Shown here piece by piece: positions 7,162 to 50,941 of a stretch of DNA of 64,000 nucleotides. A model generated the notes under the pieces. It saw nothing but the letters and a program-made list of their open reading frames with translations. It ran no database searches and was not told the DNA's origin. The translations under genes and the position numbers were made by a program. The stretch is from Naegleria gruberi (taxonomy: Eukaryota). Every line of letters starts with the position of its first letter. Within the stretch, counting starts at the first letter, position 1. Location: NCBI GenBank assembly GCA_000004985.1, contig GG738862.1; one strand, given 5' to 3'.

Positions 7162-8559
7162 TTACAAATTCTTTCTAATGATTGAGGAGATGAAATGCTC
7201 ACCAAATAAGTGATAATAATCAGTATTTACAATATTTAACTGACTTGATGGCAAGATGCTTGCAATCCAACTTGGAATTGCTTGATAATTCATGAGAGCT
7301 AACTCTTTCACTGATTTTGGAGATTCAAAAAGGCCATTTACCATCATATTCAAATCTGGAGTCATTAGAATTTGAGAAACAAATTTGTATTGGAAATTCG
7401 TTCTCGAATTCAATTCAGCAATAATTTCACTCTTCAATAAATTCATATTTTGCTTATTGGCCCATCTGGTGTCAATTCTCCAACTTGGAAAGAGATTATA
7501 TGCATTTGCATAATTGATTACTGTTGTGGAATGGGAATAATAGAAGAAAACTCTTTGTGGACTACTCAAGATTTGATTAAGAGTAGAATTGGTACTAAAG
7601 TGAGCAGGATTAATCATCAATTCACTTCCTAAAATGGAACGACTCATATTCAAAAATTCCAAATGATCATTCTGAGTTGAAAATCCATACAAATGATTAA
7701 AATCCAAAGTAACAACTTCCTTCTTATTATCATTCAAAAATTGCTTAACTTGTCTCAACACATTAGCAATGGTGACACTTGCCAATCCATGACAAGCAAC
7801 AAATTTCAACTCACTGCTAGAAACTCCACTCATCTTACAAACTCTCAAATCCAAATGTCTAATTCCTTGATTTAACTGTTGATAAATTGTGCATTCTTGA
7901 TTCTTAAACCAAGGAGCAACAAATTGCTTAATTCTCTGCGTGTTCAATCCGTACGATGTGAAAATTTGGATCATTTGAGGAATGAGAGTCATGGATGGAT
8001 CAGATTGTAAGTCAGAACTGTATTCCTGAGAGGACGAAACATTATAGGTGGCAGAGTCGTGAGTTGCTGGAATTTTAAGCTTGGTAATTTGAGTATTTCC
8101 AATTTTGGAAAGTAAATCTTGCATCCATCGATTACTTTTGACAGTTCCAACAAAAGATGAAGTGCTAAACGCAAGATCATAATGTCTTTTGCATAGTAAG
8201 GAACTGTCACTTGGATGGTGATGATGTTCGGCACCAAGGGTTGTCAATTGTCGTTTTAATTGCATGACCTTTTCCATTGTAAATTGTTTAGAAATTGTTT
8301 TAGGGATTTGATGTTGAATAATATCGGATCCGAATGTTTTACTTCTCAACATTGTTCCCACGAATGTATTCTTCAAGTTTCCGATAACTTTAGAGAAACC
8401 AGACGAAAGATTAATAGATTCAACTAGTATAATATGATGTTGGATAACAAGATAGATTATACAAATGAGGATCATCGATCTGAAATGTTGCACAGTAGCT
8501 TTCATTTTGTTTTTTATGTGTTTGTTATTTGAAATCTTGTTCAATAGAGTTTCTCTCAT
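7162..8559 (-). CDS. PI-PLC X-domain-containing protein (PLCXD-like), secreted. The true start is probably the internal Met at about 8508 (MKATVQHF..., signal peptide).
   Basis: Motifs KIPATHDSATY and GIRHLDLRV match the catalytic X-box of bacterial/eukaryotic PI-specific phospholipase C. A hydrophobic N-terminal signal follows the second Met. Confidence 0.7.
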   Translation of the reverse strand: MRETLLNKISNNKHIKNKMKATVQHFRSMILICIIYLVIQHHIILVESINLSSGFSKVIGNLKNTFVGTMLRSKTFGSDIIQHQIPKTISKQFTMEKVMQLKRQLTTLGAEHHHHPSDSSLLCKRHYDLAFSTSSFVGTVKSNRWMQDLLSKIGNTQITKLKIPATHDSATYNVSSSQEYSSDLQSDPSMTLIPQMIQIFTSYGLNTQRIKQFVAPWFKNQECTIYQQLNQGIRHLDLRVCKMSGVSSSELKFVACHGLASVTIANVLRQVKQFLNDNKKEVVTLDFNHLYGFSTQNDHLEFLNMSRSILGSELMINPAHFSTNSTLNQILSSPQRVFFYYSHSTTVINYANAYNLFPSWRIDTRWANKQNMNLLKSEIIAELNSRTNFQYKFVSQILMTPDLNMMVNGLFESPKSVKELALMNYQAIPSWIASILPSSQLNIVNTDYYHLFGEHFISSIIRKNL

Positions 8560-14674: not shown

Positions 14675-17600
14675 TTAAAAATCCATTTCATACAAATCAG
14701 TTAACATGTTCATGATAATTTCAAAGGATGGTCTTGCACTTGGTTCGGTGGCCCAACTCATTTTCATAATATTAACATAACCATCGACTGCGGAGAGGAG
14801 TTGATGAGCATTACGAGGATTCATTTCTCGTAGAAACTTTTCACACCATGTGGTCATTTCATTCCAATCAACGAATGGTATGATTGGTCGTTTTTCTTGA
14901 TTAGCTACAAAGAAGAGCAAGTTGAAGGCCTTGATTTTCTTTTGATCCAAACTCACATGATTGAAATAATTAATCTTTTCACATGTATCATTCCAATAAG
15001 GGGTTTCCTCAAAGAAGAGTTCCCACATTATTATTGCATATGCATAGACATCCTAAATTGAACGAATAATATTAATATTTTAGAATAGATTGCTAAAACT
15101 TACAATTTTCTTGGCATTCTCTTTGGAAAGTGCGGATGAGGTCTGTTCATTATCTTCTTCAAGAATTAATTCAGGACACCTTTACAAATATTGAAATAAT
15201 TAAATGGATATTCTAATATTATTACTTACATGTATAATAATGTTCCAATATTTGCAGTTAATGATGTTGTCAAGGTATGATTTGAGACTGTTCTAGATAA
15301 TCCAAAGTCACACACTTTTGGATTATCATTATAGTCTAGAATAATATTAGCAGGTTTTAAATCTCTGTGAATGAGATAGTTAGGTTGTAATCCATGCAAG
15401 TATTTCATCCCATTTGCAATACCAATCAGAATTTTTAGCTTTTCCTTCAAAGTCTTCTTGACAGTTCCTTTCTTCATATTCTTGATAAGTCTCTCCATAC
15501 TTCCATTCTGAGCCAACTCTACAACCATGTAGGATTGAGTTTCAGAAATACAAATTCCATAGAATGAAATAATATTCACATGTCTGAGTTGTATCAGAAC
15601 CATTACTTCCTTCTCGAACATGTCATTACTACCCTCCTTTCGAACAATGGTTTTCACAGCAACATCCATCATATTCCATTTGGCTTGATAGACAGATCCT
15701 GAGGCACCTTCTCCAATTTTCTTTTCAAATTTCAGTTCATTTGCTGGAATTATGTAATTGGCATTCTTTTCAATATCCACAGAATGAAGGGATCCATAAT
15801 CAGAGTACGAGACATCATAGGTAAGTAGTTTTTCTTCGATTTCCTTCTCTGATTTTTCTCGAACATAGACTTTCTTGATCTTTTTGTAAACTCTCCAAAT
15901 TGAAAAGGCAAGGAATGAACAAGTGCATGAGCCAATAACGATACCAATAATCATCACCAATATTGAGGCAACAACAATGACTGGTATGACCTGACTATAG
16001 GGAAAACCAAGTTGACACAGTCCATCCTTAATGATATAATCCACCTTGCAAGGAACCAAGTGAACACGTACAAATTTAGTTGTTGCAAATGGGAGTCTTA
16101 ATTTGAGAAAAAAATAATTATCTTTTTTGAGATCTATGGATTCTTTCTTGAGTGAAATGTGAAATCCAACAATATTCGAAAAATTGGTCTGGTTTACATG
16201 CACATCAAAGTTTGAGCTCGATAAAGTATCGTTGATTTCTATAATGGCACTTTCTAACAATACAGGTACATTATTATTTACACCATCAGTCATTTGAGAA
16301 AAGTAAGCAGATACTACTTGCCCCGGATAGACATAAATTGATTCATAAGTGTCATCTGATTTCAATTCCAATCTATCTAGTGAAAGATTGTATTGCCTTA
16401 TTGAGGTGGCAATATCATTTCCGTATTGATCTGCACTATTATATTGAACATCAGGCATATTTTCAATAAAAGCATACCCTTCAATGAATATTCCTCCTCC
16501 AATAAATGCAGAGTTCTCTTCCATCATAGGAGAGTATATTCCAATATTTTTTCCATTTGTGAAACAGGCACCACCTCTAAGGGCTGAATTGAGTAGAAAT
16601 GTTGATTTCGTCATAAAGCCATGCGTATTGATTAGTGATAGGGCTCCTCCACTTCCCTCAACGAAATGACCAGACTTGAAACGCTGTTCCTCCGCTGGTG
16701 ATAGAACAATTCTATTATTTACAAAACTAGTAAGAAGTAAACTAGCTGCCAAAGTAGTATTTCGAATATAGAGTGCACCACCTGCCAGTGTTGAATTATT
16801 TGAATGAAAAAGTGTCGATTCAATTCTAACTGCATAATTTCCATCCATTAATACGGCTCCTCCATTTCCATTTTTTGCTGTGTTATTGATAAATCGTGAT
16901 CCTAGAATGCATGAAGATGTAGAGACAGAGAGGAGTGAAATGCTACCTCCACTCTTGAATGAAGTATTGTTGAAAAATCTGGAGTTTTTCACAACAACTA
17001 CATCAGAAGAATCAATAAGTATAGCACCTGAATGTTTGGCCTTGTTTTGTTGAAAAAAGCAATCAACCACTTTGACCTCCTGACACAGATAGAGAGAAAC
17101 CACTGATTTTGCATTCATTGAATAATTGTCTATGAATGCAGAACGTACAAAATTGACTGTTCCCACTGAAATCCAATCTATCCATCCATACTCTCTCTTT
17201 CCAGAAAAATTACATTTGGTTATAAATATCCGAAAGACAAGGTTTGCCTTAATAGCTGAAAGTTCGGCTGGGTCGCCGGCATCTTCCTTTGGATTCTTTC
17301 TAATATGATTCCGTAACGGAACATATGTAAAATTGCAATGATTAATATCTGCCTGAACGACAGATCGCAATGTCAACTGTGAATTCTTTGAAAATTCGAA
17401 TTGGCAATACGAAAACTCGACACTTTCTGCATGTGCAACTAATATAGTAGGACCAGCACTATCTACATCCAATTTGGCTGAAAATTTGGTCCTATTAAAC
17501 AATACCCTTTCAGCTCCCATTATCATTATATCTGAATCAGTTACACAATTTTCCATTTCAATATTTCCATAATTCATCTCAATAACCGATCCAATAATTC

Positions 17601-18405
17601 TCGAATTAGAAAGTCTAAATCTATAGTCCATACTACTAAAAATTTTCACCTGATAAAAATCAACATTTGAAGCTTCCATACATGGCGTAACCATATTAAT
17701 TGCCTTCATATTATGAAACCGTATATAGGAAATAACACTTGATGAATCAGTTATAAAACCATCTGTATCATAAAAGCATCTAATGAGTCGAGGTGAAGCA
17801 TTGTCAAAACTCTTCACTAACACATTAACTCGAATAAATTGCCGAATCGATCCATCAATGGGTGGAACTCGAGCAAGACATGCCCTTCCACCACTTCTAT
17901 CCAAATCAGCTAGATCAGTCATTAGAATTATATTAAACAAAATTTCAAAGCATTCACCCTTTCTTCCTTCCCTAGTAGAAATTGAGGATAATGAAACCAT
18001 GGCAGCTGACATGTCCTTACATGCATTCTCAGTGGTTGATCCACAATCAAGAATTGATGTATAATTTTCCAAATTTACATGAATATCAAAACTAATTGGA
18101 ATATAGGAAAAACATGTTTTCACTTTTGTAAAATTTCCATTCGTTCGGTTTAATCCCAAATTAGAATTTGTTTCGTCTAATATTCTATTTAATCTTGTTG
18201 GTTTATAATTTTTAGAGTACCTAGGGGTGTTGTATTTTAGAGAAGATGATCCTTTCAATTTTTTACTTTCTCTAATGGTTTCTATTAGTTTCGTTTTATG
18301 TACAAAATTCGATTTTTCAAATTGTCGTATTTCCAACTCCGAAAAAGTAGAAAAACAATCATCATTTGCAATATTTAAACTACTAAATATTAATAAAAGT
18401 AACAT
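14675..18405 (-). CDS. Receptor-type tyrosine-kinase-like (TKL) Ser/Thr kinase: signal peptide, ectodomain of Pmp-type (GGA[ILV]/FxxN) right-handed beta-helix repeats, one TM, cytoplasmic kinase. Three exons, introns about 15180..15229 (50 nt) and 15053..15103 (51 nt).
   Basis: Kinase motifs GEGASGSVY, VAVK, HRDLKPANIIL, DFGLS, then YM|CPE and DVYAYAIIMWEL recovered only after splicing a 76-nt micro-exon (15104..15179). Ectodomain has about a dozen repeats with FxxN…GGA(I/L/V). TM is VIPVIVVASILVMIIGIVIG. The likely start is the internal Met giving MLLLLIFSSLNIAND. Confidence 0.8.
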
Positions 18406-18715
18406 TATTATCGTTATCCTAAAAAATTGTTCCGAGACTAGTTTCGTCCTTGATGTTCTTTCGTATAAGAAATAGAAAGTTGTGTTTCGGTGATGGTAAC
18501 TTTCTATTTCTTCTCGTCCAAAGAACCTCCAATTCATAGTTTCCTTTCCATAGAGTTGATGTTATTTTTTTAATGTCTGTTGTCGAAAGTGTCTGACGTC
18601 TGTTTTAGGATTTCTTCCAATAAGAAATGCTCACACTCAAAAACAAGAAACAAAGATACAAAGGAAAAAAGATATTTTCCAAAGAATCTTGAACAATCAT
18701 TTAACAAAAAAGGTG

Positions 18716-18854: not shown

Positions 18855-19957
18855 TCAAGAAATTGAACATGCTGTTTCTGATTCGAATATTTTGGTATCT
18901 TTTTTGACCACCTTAGCTAATAGAATCCTTCTTTCTGAATACTTGGAATGTCCTTCGAAAAAGTATCCCTTTTCAATTGCTCTTTCGACAACTGTTTGAA
19001 TGTTAATATTCTTCTTACAGCTTGTTTCTATAATTTCATAATTGCAACTTCCAAAATTATTCAATAGTTCGATAATTTTCTCCTTAACATGCTCTACATT
19101 TAGCGTGGAATCATATTCCAAACGGTCAATCTTGTTAATGCAAATTGTTAGTGGAATAGATTCGTCATCATGAATATAAATAATTGATCTAAAGATTTTT
19201 TGTAAAATATTGTAATCATCTTCTTGAGAATTCACTGAAAATAGTATAATATATCCTCTAGCTCCTCTCAATTTGGCTATCAATGAAAATCATTGATTCA
19301 TAAACAATTTAGATCATTAAACTTACATTCATGAAACATGTAATAATCATTTCTGAAACCATTTTCCCAAATTTCCAATTTCAATTCTGTTTCATTAAAT
19401 TGAACATTCTTATAAAATACTTCATCCAACGAATAATCATATTGTTCATTGAATTGATCATTTAAATATCGATTGATGAAGGAATGAATACCTGACCCTC
19501 CTGGTCCACTAACACAAAGTTTAAAAACATCTCTTTTCGAATAGGGATCTGAAATTGAAAATTGGTCCTTTCTCCTCCTTTCTGCCTCCTTCAAAATTCC
19601 AAAAATTCTCTTATTCGATTTCATCTTTAATTTCTCCACAATTTCGTCTTTCTTTTTCCAATGATCATGCACATTAATTGAATTCACCACTTCTCGTCCA
19701 TTCTTCACTTCCAATCGGAGATTAATAAATTGAAACAAAATAATCTTCCAATAATTTTCCAATAAATTTTGAAAATTTTCTCCAAATTGTTTAGAAATTA
19801 ATTCCAAGTTACATAAATTTTTGATATTTTTCTCTGATCGGGCGAGGAGTGGATTTGCAATGATGAGAAATTCGAGAATGTGCCGTAAAAGTTCAGGAGG
19901 AAGATCAGTTAGGTGATGTTGTGGAGGCATTTTTTTTTGTAAGTTTCGTATTTTCAA
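18855..19957 (-). CDS. F-box protein fused to a Ras/Rab-like small-GTPase domain with degenerate P-loop and switch II (pseudo-GTPase). Two exons, intron about 19277..19326 (50 nt).
   Basis: N-terminal LTDLPPELLRHILEFL is an F-box. The G-domain reads GPGGSGIHS (Lys/Ser of GxxxxGK[ST] lost) and WENGF (DxxGQ lost), with intact NKID and SCK. A phase-1 GTAAGT…GATAG splice joins …MFHE|SKLRGARGYIILF. Confidence 0.7.
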
Positions 19958-20596: not shown

Positions 20597-22159
20597 ATGA
20601 ACAGCAGCATTCTATCCAATGAGAGTGTCGACTCTCGAACCCACATTGAGCTGTCAACTAGTCCAACAAGTATCTCCTCACCTCGAAATGTCAACCAACA
20701 ACAATCATTCAAAGATAATTCACCACCACAATCTGCAAGTGGCACACACTTTGTAACTCAACCAGAATCTACTGTTTATTCATCGGCAACTGGAAAGAAG
20801 GATTCGAATAATCGTCAGTCAACTAAGAGTGAACAATCTTCGATGAAAACTCCAAGAAATTCATCGGCTACTGGGTTTAGATCTAGGACATTTAGATGGT
20901 ATACATGTTGTGGTGTATTGGAAATGAATTGTTTAAAGTTGACAAGTTTAGTTGCGTTGGTAGTTAGTTTAGTTTCGTTTGTTGCTTTACTCGCCATTAT
21001 TTCAGTTAATTATTCGATTGCAAGGGACTATCAACTCAAGCTTGCAAATTTGAGTACTTCTGGTACTTTTTACAGAGAATTAATGAAGCTGTCATGTAGA
21101 GCAGCTGTCACATCAAGTTACAACAAGACATTGTCATTAGAATTTGCCACAACTTACAATCAATACTTTACAACCTATTATTCTGATTTGGGTAAGCTCG
21201 TTGCTACTGTTCCACCATCCATTCTCTATTGGAATAAGATGAATATTACAATGGAAGAGCTCAAGTCAAGAAAAGCTGTCAGAATGGAACTTGCCATGAT
21301 TGCAAATGTCAAAACTGGAAATTATTCAACAGCTTTGGCAAGTTTGGAATCTGATACATATAAGGGCTATTTAACTGGTTATCAAGAAGAAGTTCAAAGC
21401 TTTATTAATTATGCAGAAGACATGAAAAGTGACAATGAAAAAATGGATTTGACAACCACAACTGTTTCACTAATTGTCATTTGCATCTCACTAGTCATTG
21501 TCATTCCAATTCTCCTAGCATTTATGATATTGAGCTTGAGAAAGGACGATACCAAAGAGAAACAACTCAGACAAGTCAAGAAATACATGATTATGGACAC
21601 AATTAATGATTCTTCATTGGTGGAAAAGTTTAAGGAATTTTGTAAACAAGAACGAAGTGAAGAGAATTTTGTGTTATTGGAAAAGATTAATGAATATAAG
21701 AAGTTGTGTGAAAAGAGTTTTGATATTCAAGTGGTGCTGTATGATACTGGTGATGCTTTGAGTATTTCAGATGTAGTTTCGGATACTACTGCTTCAAGTC
21801 AAGATGAATCGACTAAAAAGAAGAATAAGCATAAGAAGGGATTTACAGAGAAGGATTTGCAAGATATTGAAAAGAAGAAATTCGAAATTGCATTCGAAAT
21901 TTATTCAGAATTTTTAGATATTCAAGGAGATCATGCTGTGAATATTAGTAAGCAATTTGCTGATGTTGTCAAACTTAGTTTAGATTCGTTTGCTAAGGGT
22001 GAGAATGAATACATGCCAGAAACTTTATTCGAAAGTATTGAATACGAAATGTGTTTATTAATGATGGATACTCATCACAGATTTAAACAACATATGGAAG
22101 TTCAATTGAAACAAAAGAAACAAGTCCTTTCAACATTGAAAAGAAAACCAAAAAAGTAA
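20597..22159 (+). CDS. Two-TM membrane protein with cytoplasmic RGS domain: N-terminal Ser/Thr-rich tail, TM1, extracellular domain of about 170 aa, TM2, RGS.
   Basis: RGS signature …FCKQERSEENFVLLEKINEYKK… plus a helical C-terminus. Hydrophobic segments LVALVVSLVSFVALLAIISV and VSLIVICISLVIVIPILLAFMIL bracket a Cys-poor extracellular region. Confidence 0.7.
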   Translation: MNSSILSNESVDSRTHIELSTSPTSISSPRNVNQQQSFKDNSPPQSASGTHFVTQPESTVYSSATGKKDSNNRQSTKSEQSSMKTPRNSSATGFRSRTFRWYTCCGVLEMNCLKLTSLVALVVSLVSFVALLAIISVNYSIARDYQLKLANLSTSGTFYRELMKLSCRAAVTSSYNKTLSLEFATTYNQYFTTYYSDLGKLVATVPPSILYWNKMNITMEELKSRKAVRMELAMIANVKTGNYSTALASLESDTYKGYLTGYQEEVQSFINYAEDMKSDNEKMDLTTTTVSLIVICISLVIVIPILLAFMILSLRKDDTKEKQLRQVKKYMIMDTINDSSLVEKFKEFCKQERSEENFVLLEKINEYKKLCEKSFDIQVVLYDTGDALSISDVVSDTTASSQDESTKKKNKHKKGFTEKDLQDIEKKKFEIAFEIYSEFLDIQGDHAVNISKQFADVVKLSLDSFAKGENEYMPETLFESIEYEMCLLMMDTHHRFKQHMEVQLKQKKQVLSTLKRKPKK

Positions 22160-48041: not shown

Positions 48042-50941
48042 TTAAGCAATCAATAGTATGGAAAGTAAAATTGCAATCAAAGAAAGTGAAGTTCCAATTC
48101 TATTCGAAACATTTCTTTGATTTCCAGCAATCAACTTATTCATACTACTCACTTCAGAAACCTGATTAATATCCAACGATATTTTCCCAACAGCTCTCAA
48201 AGTATCTGGACGATTCAAATCCTTCATTGAACCCAAATCGAAAATCGAATAAATTGGAATTCCTTTCGAATTTAAACTTCTGCTATCAATATAATCTCCA
48301 TTAATTTCAGAATACAAACTCAATGTAATGGTCAACAGCTTATCATTCAAAAAATCCAAAGTTTGTTTTGGGATGAGTGTGAAATTTGTTGTCATTACTC
48401 CGCACACATCATCCGAACCAATGACAATTTCAGTTGAGTTGAAATAGAGATTGAAAGCTTGAGGTGGAATTCCAGTAAATTGGCACGATTGACCAAAGGT
48501 TGAATCTCTACATTGGCATTGATTGTAATCAACGCATTTTCCATGTCCACCACAAACTCTGTTCAAATCTTTTGAGGAAATTGAGTCACATGTTGTTTCA
48601 GAACAATCGCTTCCTGTCCAATTATTTTGACATTGACAGGTAGAGGACATGGTGCATTTACCATGAGAAGAACAAACATTTGGAGCATTGAATGGAATTC
48701 CATTACAATAAATCATTTCTCCTTCACATCCTGAAAAATCTGAGCTACTGAACTTTCCTTCTGGACATTTGGAGCAATTCTTCCAATCTTCATTGAGAAA
48801 TTCACCTAAATCACATGTGGTTTCTAGTTTTCTTATTTGAGTTGTGAAATGTCCGTTTATCTGATCTAAAAAGTAAATTTCATTATATCCTTTTATGGAA
48901 CCCCGAAGCTCAGGTGTATGGAAATTTGTTAAAGTTCCAACAATGCCACTTGGAGTATATCCAGGATCGAAATCACCATAGACAGTTTGTAAAAGTCCGG
49001 TCTTTTTCGAAACCTTTCGAATTCTATTGTCTTCTGAAAATATAATATCTCCATAAGGAAGAACTACAACTGAAATTGGAGAGATTGCTGCATTGGTTGC
49101 CTTAATTCCATCATGTCCATAATCGGTAGCATCTTTGGAACCTGCAACTATGGTGACTAAACCATTTGAACTAATCTTTTTGATTATACGATTCTTGTAA
49201 TCAGAAACGTAAAAGTCATTTTGTGGACTAATTGTAAATGTTGAACCAGATCCAAGTTGTGTCTGATTGGCAGAGATATTAGATGAGAAAATATCAGAAC
49301 CACCTCCTGCAACCAATCTAATTCGTCCACTTTCGAATGTGAAAATATATGATTGAGCTGAAGCAGACATTAAGAAATAAACTTGACCATTATATGGAGA
49401 AACCATCAGTCCAGATCCCTGACAAACACAAGTTTCCAATTGCAAATCTCCATCCTTAGGAATGCAATGTTGTCCATTTCCAGCGAAAATTGAAATTTCC
49501 TTCGTTTGAGTATTCATTTTGTAAAGCAGTGAATCAGTTGTGAAATAGACAGCTGGTTCAGCATTTGAAGCTGCAAAATTGTAATAATTAATTGCCTTGT
49601 CTCCAGTGAAAAAAGTCTCAACAATTGGAAGAGAATTCACGTCAGCAGATTGAGCAGTTTTTCGGTAGAAATTAATAGAATTGAAATACCATTCATTCGA
49701 ATCAGATTTGTAAACTGCTTTGACAGATCGACTGCTATCAATTTTAGAATAAGCAGCTGGAATACCATCAATGTAATATCCCTTTGATCCAGCAATTGTT
49801 TCAATCTTCCAGTCATTTCTATTAGCAGAGGCCGAGTTTACAATTTTTGCAATTCTTCCTTGTTTTTCTGAGATATACAATTCATTGGTAATTGGAGATA
49901 ATTCAATGTGATAAGGAGAAAGGAACAGCTTGTTAGTGTTCATGCCTTGATCTGGTCGAGGTGATGTATAAATACTTTGAATTCCAGCAGTATTAGAGGT
50001 GATATTACTCATTGCTCTAATATATCCACTTTGGTCAACCTTCATTAGAAAAGTTTGAGAGCCAAAGAAGATTTCCCCAGTCTTGTAATTGATAGTAAAA
50101 GTTCCTAAAGAACCAGATACAGATGTGGCCAGAGCGTTATCTTGTGGAAATCCCTCAAAACCATTTCCCAAGACATTGACCAGTGAGCCATCTTTAATTC
50201 TGAAGAGAGTGTCATGGTAAGCTTCATAGAAATAAATAGTTTCATTATAGACAGAACACGCAGAAATGTCTCTGAATGCAAGGTTTTGTAAATTGGTAAC
50301 AGGTCCCTCAAAATTGAAATATTGTCTTTTATAGAAATTTCCAAAATTAGTATCTAAATATTAAATATAGAAATAACTTACTTGCCACCACCTGCAACAG
50401 TATTAATAATCCTATCTCTAACCCTCTTTATCTTTCTCGATTCTGCAATAATCAAATCACCATTCGCTAGATCAATATCTAAATACCAAGGATTTTCAAG
50501 TTTTGCTTGATTTGCAGGAATATAATTACCATCAAGATAACCACCTCCAGCAAAGAGTGTTTTAGTTTTGGTTGATGCACTGTATTTGTAGACCAAACCT
50601 TGAGAAATATAGTAAATGTCAGATGTCTCTCCATCAACTGTGAAATCCATTGTTTGGAAAATGGATTCGTTTGGAACTGCATCTGTTATTTGACCAGAAG
50701 TTAGATTTAATAGTTTAATGGAGACATAGGTTGTTACAGTTTCGGTTGTAAAGTAAACTAAAGTTTCGTCCTTTGGGTGAAACATAAACTTTTGAGGAAG
50801 GATGACATTATACATGAAAGGAACACTTTCATCAGTTGAGCCAACAATTGTGGAAAGCTTTCGTGTAATACTTGCTGTTGAAATATGCAGAATCAAGAGC
50901 AGTAGGATAATGGTTGTAGATACGAAAGGTTTAGCTTGCAT
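48042..50941 (-). CDS. Type-I membrane protein with NHL-like beta-propeller repeats and a cluster of EGF/tenascin-type Cys-rich modules (teneurin-like module content). Two exons, intron 50326..50381 (56 nt).
   Basis: Exon 1 carries the signal peptide MQAKPFVSTTIILLLLILHIS and NHL-type blades. Phase-2 GTAAGT…AAAAG splice into exon 2. The C-terminal region has C-x-C-x(n)-C patterns (…GKCTMSSTCQCQNNWTGSDCSETTC…GHGKCVDYNQCQCRDSTFGQSCQ) and TM IGTSLSLIAILLSILLIA. Confidence 0.7.

Follow-up and report, generated by a model that had tools for sequence, protein, structure and literature searches.

A two-transmembrane RGS protein of Naegleria gruberi with an extracellular domain of bacterial ancestry, a candidate receptor-type GAP

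We analyzed a 64,000 nt window of nuclear DNA from Naegleria gruberi (contig GG738862.1 of assembly GCA_000004985.1), with a focus on the gene at positions 20597 to 22159, which encodes a protein with a regulator of G-protein signalling (RGS) domain and two transmembrane (TM) helices. Between the two helices lies an extracellular four-helix bundle that sequence comparisons show to be homologous to a periplasmic sensor domain widespread in bacteria, and the second helix leads directly into a cytoplasmic RGS domain with an intact predicted G-alpha-binding surface. We consider it rather likely that the gene encodes a ligand-regulated, receptor-type GTPase-activating protein (GAP) for G-alpha, in which an input of prokaryotic origin is joined to a eukaryotic output. 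The evidence for homology and architecture is firm, whereas control of the GAP by a ligand is inferred. Receptor-GAPs are already known in the form of seven-transmembrane (7TM) RGS proteins; here, the input is a two-TM, bacteria-derived sensor, which itself belongs to an uncatalogued domain family.

Architecture of the RGS protein and its predicted G-alpha-binding surface

The product of the open reading frame (ORF) is identical over its full length to the NCBI entry "predicted protein [Naegleria gruberi]" (P0001; identity 100%, coverage 100%), and the annotated gene thus consists of a single exon. The features of the protein and their coordinates are collected in Table 1. Structural statements refer to an AlphaFold2 model based on a family alignment of 19 sequences (A1); a second alignment of 10 sequences (A2) covers the RGS region.

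A hydropathy scan (Kyte-Doolittle, 19-residue means) revealed exactly two strong hydrophobic segments in the protein, with values of 2.91 at residues 119–137 and 3.27 at residues 293–311. A topology with the N-terminus inside, the loop outside and the C-terminus inside fits the data and is supported by them, because the flank after TM2 is positive (across the family, the net charge is +2 to +4 over the 15 aa after TM2 and −3 to +1 over the 15 aa before it), N-x-S/T sequons are biased toward the inter-TM loop (2.7 per 100 aa in the family vs. 0.9 in the C-terminal module), and the RGS domain must be cytosolic. The alternative of a signal peptide plus an anchor was rejected. TM1 starts internally, around residue 114, and is not a cleavable signal peptide because a tail of 113 aa precedes it; in 19 relatives, the lengths of the N-tails range from 49 to 248 aa.

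These results bear on several claims of a first-pass annotation of the window. Its two TM segments stand, as the hydropathy peaks are internal and the refuting reading that it had named, a signal peptide plus an anchor, failed. It had also set the layout apart from the 7TM-RGS proteins of plants, and indeed only two hydrophobic segments are found in this protein and in about 90 relatives. The dimensions that it gave have to be revised: the cytosolic N-tail, described as short, comprises 113 disordered residues, and the extracellular domain, given as 170–300 aa, is a loop of about 152 aa. The RGS similarity on which it relied is backed by a Pfam profile, by the fold and by conserved G-alpha contact residues, as detailed below. 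Its reading of the protein as a receptor that deactivates G proteins is thus supported, with a putative coupling of ligand binding to GAP activity.

Residues 1–97 of the N-tail have a predicted local distance difference test score (pLDDT) of only 30–41. Just before TM1, on the cytoplasmic side, the conserved juxtamembrane element is modelled as a beta-hairpin (residues 99–103/106–110), with an invariant G106 and with T103 and E109 conserved in at least 90% of the sequences of A1. The T-C-C-G motif in this element may be palmitoylated at both Cys residues, which would recall the small RGS proteins with their palmitoylated N-terminal Cys residues. The first helix of the bundle is continuous with TM1 (residues 112–150), and one unbroken helix from residue 253 to residue 337 comprises the last helix of the bundle, TM2 and a linker of about 22 residues, and thereby reaches the start of the RGS domain. 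In A1, the linker has an invariant D317 and a K322 that is conserved in at least 90% of the sequences.

The match to the Pfam RGS family PF00615 (E 3e-6, 28.1 bits) exceeds the gathering score of 23.9, and PF00615 matches are also precomputed for most family members. The model contains the all-helical RGS-box fold, with a pLDDT of about 80–90 over the RGS helices, and a structural alignment with RGS4 yielded 28% identity. For the contact residues, the sequence of rat RGS4, whose numbering reproduced the literature positions N88, N128, D163 and R167, was aligned to the family. The RGS4 residues E83, S85, E87, N88, N128, D163, R167 and F168 correspond to E352, S354, E356, N357, N449, D491, R495 and F496 of the Naegleria protein. 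Seven of these eight positions are invariant in A2, the eighth, equivalent to E87, being E in eight and D in two of the 10 sequences; the same seven (all except E356) are also invariant columns in A1. These RGS4 positions are the contacts to the switch regions of G-alpha in the RGS4–Gi-alpha1 complex, where Asn128 touches the catalytic Gln of G-alpha. The comparison thus shows an intact predicted G-alpha-binding surface, including the Asn128 equivalent N449, and the domain is predicted to act as a GAP on G-alpha.

The 164 residues of the domain span only 106 positions of the Pfam profile, and thus a large insert must be present. It is a conserved, family-specific segment of 33 residues, of which residues 385–413 are modelled with a pLDDT below 50 and appear disordered; K413, near its end, and E418, just beyond it, are invariant in A1. 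The insert may be a regulatory loop for phosphorylation or lipid binding.

An extracellular sensor domain of bacterial ancestry

The loop between the TM helices is modelled as an antiparallel up-down helical bundle that resembles Tar, with a pLDDT mostly between 85 and 96. In a Foldseek search, Tar (4z9i) was retrieved with a probability of 0.99, but no E-value reached 1e-3. The first-pass annotation had likened the layout to that of bacterial chemoreceptors. The antiparallel four-helix bundle between the TM segments agrees with this structurally; membership in the corresponding Pfam families was not borne out, as neither 4HB_MCP (PF12729) nor TarH (PF02203) matched the protein at E ≤ 1.

To place the domain, we ran the family profile (HMMER) over 1.84 billion cluster representatives and obtained 288 matches at E ≤ 1e-3. 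The matches were classified with three hidden Markov models (HMMs) and a hydropathy scan, with representatives taken at 50% identity. Among them were proteins that aligned only at about positions 120–310 of the profile, that is, TM1, loop and TM2, with E-values of 1e-8 to 1e-6. According to Pfam, these loop-only proteins comprise histidine kinases, whose HisKA/HATPase modules are often accompanied by PAS or GAF, as well as GGDEF diguanylate cyclases and one class III cyclase, and in each of them the sensor region is N-terminal and has no Pfam assignment. Those with names are bacterial, for example MCX6170343.1 of Ignavibacteriales. When the TM segments were removed and the loops of the Naegleria and bacterial alignments were compared with hhalign, the probability was 98.5% (E 2e-15, 129 columns). 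An HMM of the bacterial domain scored 28 bits on the Naegleria protein at residues 145–280, and of the 33 positions with a conservation of at least 85% among the bacterial sequences, 13 are retained. The residues common to the bacterial domain and the Naegleria family are, in the numbering of the protein encoded in the window, S166, Y187, P206, E231, A246, S252, Y255 and Y262. Four further proteins, from heteroloboseans or environmental eukaryote-like sources (P0109, P0122, P0111 and P0036 of N. lovaniensis), have ectodomains much closer to the bacterial consensus, with 66–122 bits against the bacterial HMM, and bridge the Naegleria and bacterial ectodomains. Three of them (P0122, P0111 and P0036) carry an RGS domain or its start, and the best scorer, P0109, a fragment of 223 aa, breaks off shortly after TM2. 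Altogether, the comparisons establish, at the level of sequence, homology between the ectodomain and a periplasmic sensor domain that is widespread among bacteria.

The bacterial domain, represented in our set by loci L001–L080 and proteins P0120–P0165 and P0178–P0296, is characterized by the motif Y-x-DEVLTMSA-R-M-A-A ... W-E-x-R-Y ... P ... T-D-x-A-N-x-K-L-V-A-M-E ... A ... L-x-S-x-E-Y-x-x-Q-K-x-x-Y-x-x-G. A short version, [YH]xDE[VA]LTMSA, was found in at least 600 stretches of species-representative bacterial genomes, which belong to Planctomycetota, Cyanobacteria, Desulfobacterota, Acidobacteriota, Nitrospirota, Verrucomicrobiota, Omnitrophota, Pseudomonadota and other phyla. The domain is located upstream of histidine kinase, GGDEF, class III cyclase or PAS domains, often occurs as a stand-alone protein of about 230 aa, and forms tandem doublets in P0152, P0158 and P0130. 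No Pfam-A model gave a real match to the bacterial relatives at E ≤ 10, 4HB_MCP and TarH included, no NCBIfam model matched the domain, and a search of the PDB sequences retrieved no real relative, the sole match being a repetitive designed protein. Thus, an abundant bacterial sensor domain without a Pfam or NCBIfam model comes to light.

In the protein encoded in the window, only E161, S166 and Y187 of the bacterial hallmark motif are kept, the Asp, Trp, Asn and Lys being replaced by R160, F183, S224 and L259, respectively. The Naegleria subfamily as a whole has Arg instead of the hallmark Asp in 95% of its sequences, Tyr or Phe instead of Trp, Ser instead of Asn, and Leu instead of Lys. R160 (21074–21076) is a charge reversal of the Asp in DEVLTMSA and lies at a possible ancestral ligand site.

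Bacterial four-helix-bundle sensors suited for comparison are Tar/Tsr TarH, 4HB_MCP, Vc1313-LBD, MCP2201, NarQ/NarX, TorS, HK9 and QseE. Like the 4HB_MCP and TarH chemoreceptors, the Naegleria protein has an antiparallel four-helix bundle between two TM helices; unlike the bacterial chemoreceptors and kinases, it has no HAMP domain, methyl-accepting domain or kinase, its cytoplasmic part consisting of the linker helix and the RGS domain. The N-glycosylation sequons in its loop are a further difference from the bacterial four-helix-bundle sensors. The unnamed bacterial domain (e.g., in MCX6170343.1) shares both the length and the place between two TM helices, whereas its outputs are HisKA/HATPase, GGDEF, class III cyclase or PAS, unless it stands alone.

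The layout of TM, ectodomain, TM and RGS domain was found in about 90 cluster representatives, in which the two TM helices start 160–190 residues apart. The members with a source name all belong to N. gruberi, N. lovaniensis, N. fowleri or Willaertia magna, and at least 11 are N. gruberi genes; the architecture is thus expanded in Heterolobosea. One N. gruberi member, XP_002673536.1, bears the existing name "RGS and transmembrane domain-containing protein". True 7TM-RGS proteins were present in the matches only as weak RGS-only hits with 6–7 segments, for example P0141, P0154 and P0164. A full-text search of the searchable literature found no description of two-TM RGS receptors, although an earlier description is possible. 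Three divergent two-TM RGS paralogs (P0176, P0071 and P0100) are located on one N. gruberi scaffold of 747,259 bp, with near-consecutive accession numbers (NAEGRDRAFT_58095, 67783 and 67794), which suggests that these genes expanded by tandem duplication.

Other genes of the window and a second two-TM gene

Table 1. Features of the RGS gene and of the second two-TM gene (gene 2), in coordinates of the 64,000 nt window
Feature	Position	Strand	Remarks
Two-TM RGS protein gene, single exon	20597..22159	+	ATG-to-stop ORF, 520 aa, uninterrupted
N-tail, cytoplasmic, residues 1-113	20597..20935	+	S/T/N-rich; disorder predicted; lengths vary among paralogs
Juxtamembrane element, conserved, residues 99-110	20891..20926	+	holds T103-C104-C105-G106, near-invariant
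TM1, residues ~114-137	20936..21007	+	hydropathy peak; within continuous AlphaFold2 helix 112-150
Extracellular four-helix-bundle sensor domain, residues 138-289	21008..21463	+	homologous to unnamed bacterial periplasmic sensor domain
TM2, residues ~290-312	21464..21532	+	hydropathy peak; L292 and P304 invariant
Linker, cytoplasmic, helical, residues 313-334	21533..21598	+	extends TM2 helix straight into RGS domain
RGS domain, residues 335-498	21599..22090	+	Pfam PF00615
Family-specific insert in RGS domain, residues 385-417	21749..21847	+	33 residues; acidic S/T-rich, polybasic run, then GFTEKDL..IEKKK
Gene 2, 5' part, two-TM sensor gene	62699..64000	+	434 open codons to window end
Gene 2 TM1, residues ~57-77	62867..62929	+	hydropathy 2.93 at 57-75; 4 K/R in preceding 15 aa
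Gene 2 extracellular domain, residues ~78-390	62930..63868	+	alpha/beta, weakly Cache-like; ~313 aa, 6 sequons
Gene 2 TM2, residues ~391-411	63869..63931	+	hydropathy 2.75 at 391-409
Gene 2 HAMP-like linker start (..NPLRFLENQFMRIKTFDLKSC)	63932..64000	+	motif-level only; continuation seen in paralog P0021

The window has a GC content of 30–39% throughout, a uniform eukaryotic composition. The neighbours of the RGS gene (DUF4116 repeats, an F-box/Ras-like fragment, a kinase, NHL-repeat proteins and a PI-PLC-X ORF) point to no functional link with it, as expected in a eukaryote. The adjoining convergent gene downstream, at 22187–24835 (−), encodes 882 aa with about 20 DUF4116 repeats (E 3.6e-200). 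On the other side, an ORF at 19298–19957 (−) has a weak N-terminal F-box match, and its C-terminus aligns with positions 1–69 of a Ras/Roc small-GTPase profile; this ORF is probably one exon of an intron-containing F-box–GTPase gene. Other genes of signalling type are located at 7162–8559 (−), 15226–18537 (−), 26921–30106 (+) and 48042–50171 (−). These four loci include an ORF with a PI-PLC X domain, a 1103-aa protein whose C-terminal kinase domain is cut at the end of the ORF, and two NHL/teneurin-like repeat proteins, one of them with an EGF domain.

At the edge of the window lies the 5' part of a second two-TM gene, gene 2; a stop codon in the same frame is located 11 codons before its ATG. 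Its layout consists of a 56-aa N-tail, TM1, a loop and TM2, followed by ..NPLRFLENQFMRIKTFDL; internal Met codons occur at 42, 50 and 54, and an N-terminal signal-anchor reading is formally possible. The loop matches Pfam Cache_3-Cache_2 with E-values of 0.0076–0.013 (15–16 bits), below the gathering score of 27.7, and the AlphaFold2 model of the ectodomain, based on a two-sequence alignment, was unusable (pLDDT 32). The sole relative found is P0021, an N. gruberi paralog of 751 aa with 75% identity. In the segment of P0021 from TM2 to the linker, neither HAMP (PF00672) nor any other Pfam family matched at E ≤ 10; by eye, only an AS1-like motif with a Pro can be recognized. After the linker, P0021 matches Guanylate_cyc (E 0.0061, 16.6 bits, below the gathering score of 21.9) at positions 16–171 of 183, and it matches a photoactivated adenylyl cyclase (PDB 5x4t) with an E-value of 0.0022. 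As these matches of the paralog to class III cyclases are weak yet cover almost the entire profile, the output of gene 2 is likely to be a divergent, possibly degenerate class III cyclase-homology domain. The first metal-binding Asp of the cyclase-like domain of P0021 is apparently substituted (..VVNVKLFGF.., by eye), and there are hints in the sequence that P0021 is a pseudo-cyclase. The P0021 gene model starts at a Met equivalent to residue 89 of gene 2, past TM1, and therefore its N-terminus is probably mis-annotated.

With a TM helix, a large alpha/beta ectodomain, a second TM helix and a Pro-containing HAMP-like helix, gene 2 resembles the bacterial-type Cache-HAMP-class III cyclases, from which it and P0021 differ in that the Cache and cyclase matches are below threshold and a HAMP profile match is missing. 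A single Naegleria Cache adenylate cyclase with a TM-Cache-TM-cyclase layout has been noted before (Upadhyay et al., 2016, PMC4822843). The first-pass annotation had assigned one common layout to the RGS gene and gene 2, with a HAMP-like linker in the latter. The common two-TM topology is confirmed, whereas the ectodomains, all-helical in one case and alpha/beta in the other, are unrelated; likewise, the linker motif can be seen but has no profile match. Thus, the two genes share a topology and a bacterial design principle, not their ectodomains.

A receptor-type GAP, its alternatives and its implications

The RGS protein can be compared with the 7TM-RGS proteins (Arabidopsis AtRGS1, N. fowleri 7TM RGS1–4 and those of Trichomonas), in which a receptor-like N-terminal part is likewise combined with a C-terminal cytoplasmic RGS domain. 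Such proteins occur where G-alpha is self-activating and the GAP step is regulated, and they are present in the genus Naegleria (PMC9283941). The RGS domain follows the last TM helix in both cases, but the Naegleria protein described here has two TM helices instead of seven, its sensor is an extracellular four-helix bundle of bacterial ancestry instead of a GPCR-like bundle (GPCR, G-protein-coupled receptor), and any coupling would have to pass along the single continuous helix of TM2 and linker. By analogy, the protein would follow the receptor-GAP logic of the AtRGS1 type with another input device.

The G-protein context of Naegleria is compatible with such a logic. In N. fowleri, several G-alpha subunits are self-activating, and RGS domains isolated from Naegleria 7TM-RGS proteins are GAPs for these subunits (Bosch, Jeck and Siderovski, 2022, PMC9283941). 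The same study left 79 further, non-7TM RGS proteins of N. fowleri undescribed. N. gruberi has more than 30 G-alpha subunits (PMC5784254), and 229 RGS proteins were counted in it by de Mendoza et al. (2014, PMC3971589). Some Naegleria G-alpha subunits exchange nucleotides spontaneously, so that hydrolysis would be the regulated step and control of a GAP from outside would suffice for signalling. Like bacterial four-helix-bundle sensors, the protein may act as a homodimer. Extracellular ligand binding would shift or rotate TM2 together with the rigid linker helix of about 22 residues, and this movement would alter the orientation, the dimer packing, the accessibility or the membrane proximity of the RGS domain and thereby raise or lower its GAP activity toward lipid-anchored, self-activating G-alpha-GTP at the membrane. 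As to its origin, an early heterolobosean probably took up the sensor from bacteria, and the sensor was next fused to the RGS domain, followed by amplification and diversification, in the course of which the bacterial hallmark Asp would have become Arg in this subfamily.

Several points weigh against a ligand-regulated receptor-GAP. Ligand binding, dimerization, GAP activity and the coupling between ectodomain and RGS domain are all putative. The predicted template modelling score of the whole AlphaFold2 model is low (0.39), and therefore the relative orientation of the domains is unreliable. In the Pfam scan, no HAMP domain was found in the RGS protein, and no other known transmission module lies between TM2 and the RGS domain. 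Because the hallmark motif (DEVLTMSA, W..RY, TD.AN) is largely replaced in the subfamily, the ancestral ligand site may be altered or lost. The RGS domain itself is divergent, as evident from the insert and from weak matches to known structures: the full-length family profile retrieved no chain at all from the PDB sequences at E ≤ 0.01, and the best match of an RGS-only profile, RGS10, had an E-value of only 7e-4. Furthermore, the known RGS domains are monomeric GAPs, for which dimeric piston control is hard to picture.

Some of these observations lend themselves to other explanations. If the TM helices and the glycosylated loop formed a constitutive membrane anchor, they would tether and perhaps dimerize the RGS domain at one particular membrane, and any control would be cytoplasmic, via the S/T-rich tail, the insert or palmitoylation. 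Such an anchor would be in line with the replaced hallmark residues of the sensor and with the lack of HAMP or any other transmission module, and handles for cytoplasmic control are offered by the N-tail, which is long, disordered and rich in S/T, by the TCCG motif and by the conserved insert with its acidic and polybasic stretches. However, in a comparison of three Naegleria species, conservation of the ectodomain equals that of the RGS domain, and E231, A246, S252 and Y255 are near-invariant and common to the bacterial sensors. In addition, about 90 diverged subfamilies keep the module, which is typical of receptor diversification and needless for an anchor, and the homologous bacterial domain is always found at the input position of signalling proteins. 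We therefore regard a mere anchor as unlikely. The RGS domain could also be a G-alpha-binding effector or scaffold without GAP activity, comparable to G-protein-coupled receptor kinases (GRKs), RhoGEF RGS-like domains, axin or sorting nexins, and be recruited by active G-alpha or by an unrelated partner. GAP activity has been lost in some RGS domains, as stated by de Mendoza et al. (PMC3971589), and both the weak match to the canonical RGS profile and the interruption of the domain by 33 residues are in accord with such a loss. This alternative appears quite improbable in view of the 28% identity with RGS4 and of the invariant equivalents of S85, N88, N128, D163 and R167, with E or D at the position of E87. 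To our knowledge, RGS-homology domains that are not GAPs typically lack these contact residues.

Lastly, the likeness of the ectodomains might be due to convergence or be an artefact of simple bundles and TM helices, or else the gene might be an assembly chimera or a contaminant. The Foldseek comparison gave no E-value as low as 1e-3, and the HMMER matches to bacterial proteins included the TM segments. However, the TM-free hhalign comparison retained its 98.5% over 129 columns (E 2e-15) with collinear conserved residues, and heterolobosean intermediates reach up to 122 bits with the bacterial HMM, P0122 and P0111 having an RGS start after TM2. Moreover, the fusion is found within single ORFs in four independently sequenced heterolobosean genomes, and the composition of the window (GC 30–39%) is uniformly eukaryotic. 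This explanation is hardly credible any more and can be regarded as largely refuted.

A ligand-regulated receptor-GAP would have consequences beyond the single gene. A more far-reaching proposal, which we put forward as possible rather than probable, is that of a hitherto undescribed heterolobosean receptor class, in which a horizontally acquired bacterial sensor directly gates an RGS GAP via one continuous TM helix, so that extracellular ligands switch off self-activating G-alpha subunits without a GPCR, and in which the approximately 90 diverged subfamilies represent a chemosensory repertoire comparable to the bacterial chemoreceptors but connected to heterotrimeric G-protein signalling. Receptor-GAPs are an accepted alternative to GPCR-driven activation in plants and several protists, and so far only 7TM-RGS fusions have been known. 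A two-TM version, with a sensor homologous to bacterial two-component and second-messenger input modules, would imply that the RGS output can be driven by a wholly different transmembrane mechanism, the piston or scissor type of bacteria, and that prokaryotic inputs were added to a central signalling pathway of eukaryotes. With its ectodomain, single connecting helix and RGS domain, the protein is a compact, tractable system for studying the control of a GAP across a membrane. In addition, part of the unexplained expansion of RGS proteins in Naegleria, both in N. gruberi (229 proteins) and in the pathogen N. fowleri (79 non-7TM proteins), would be explained.

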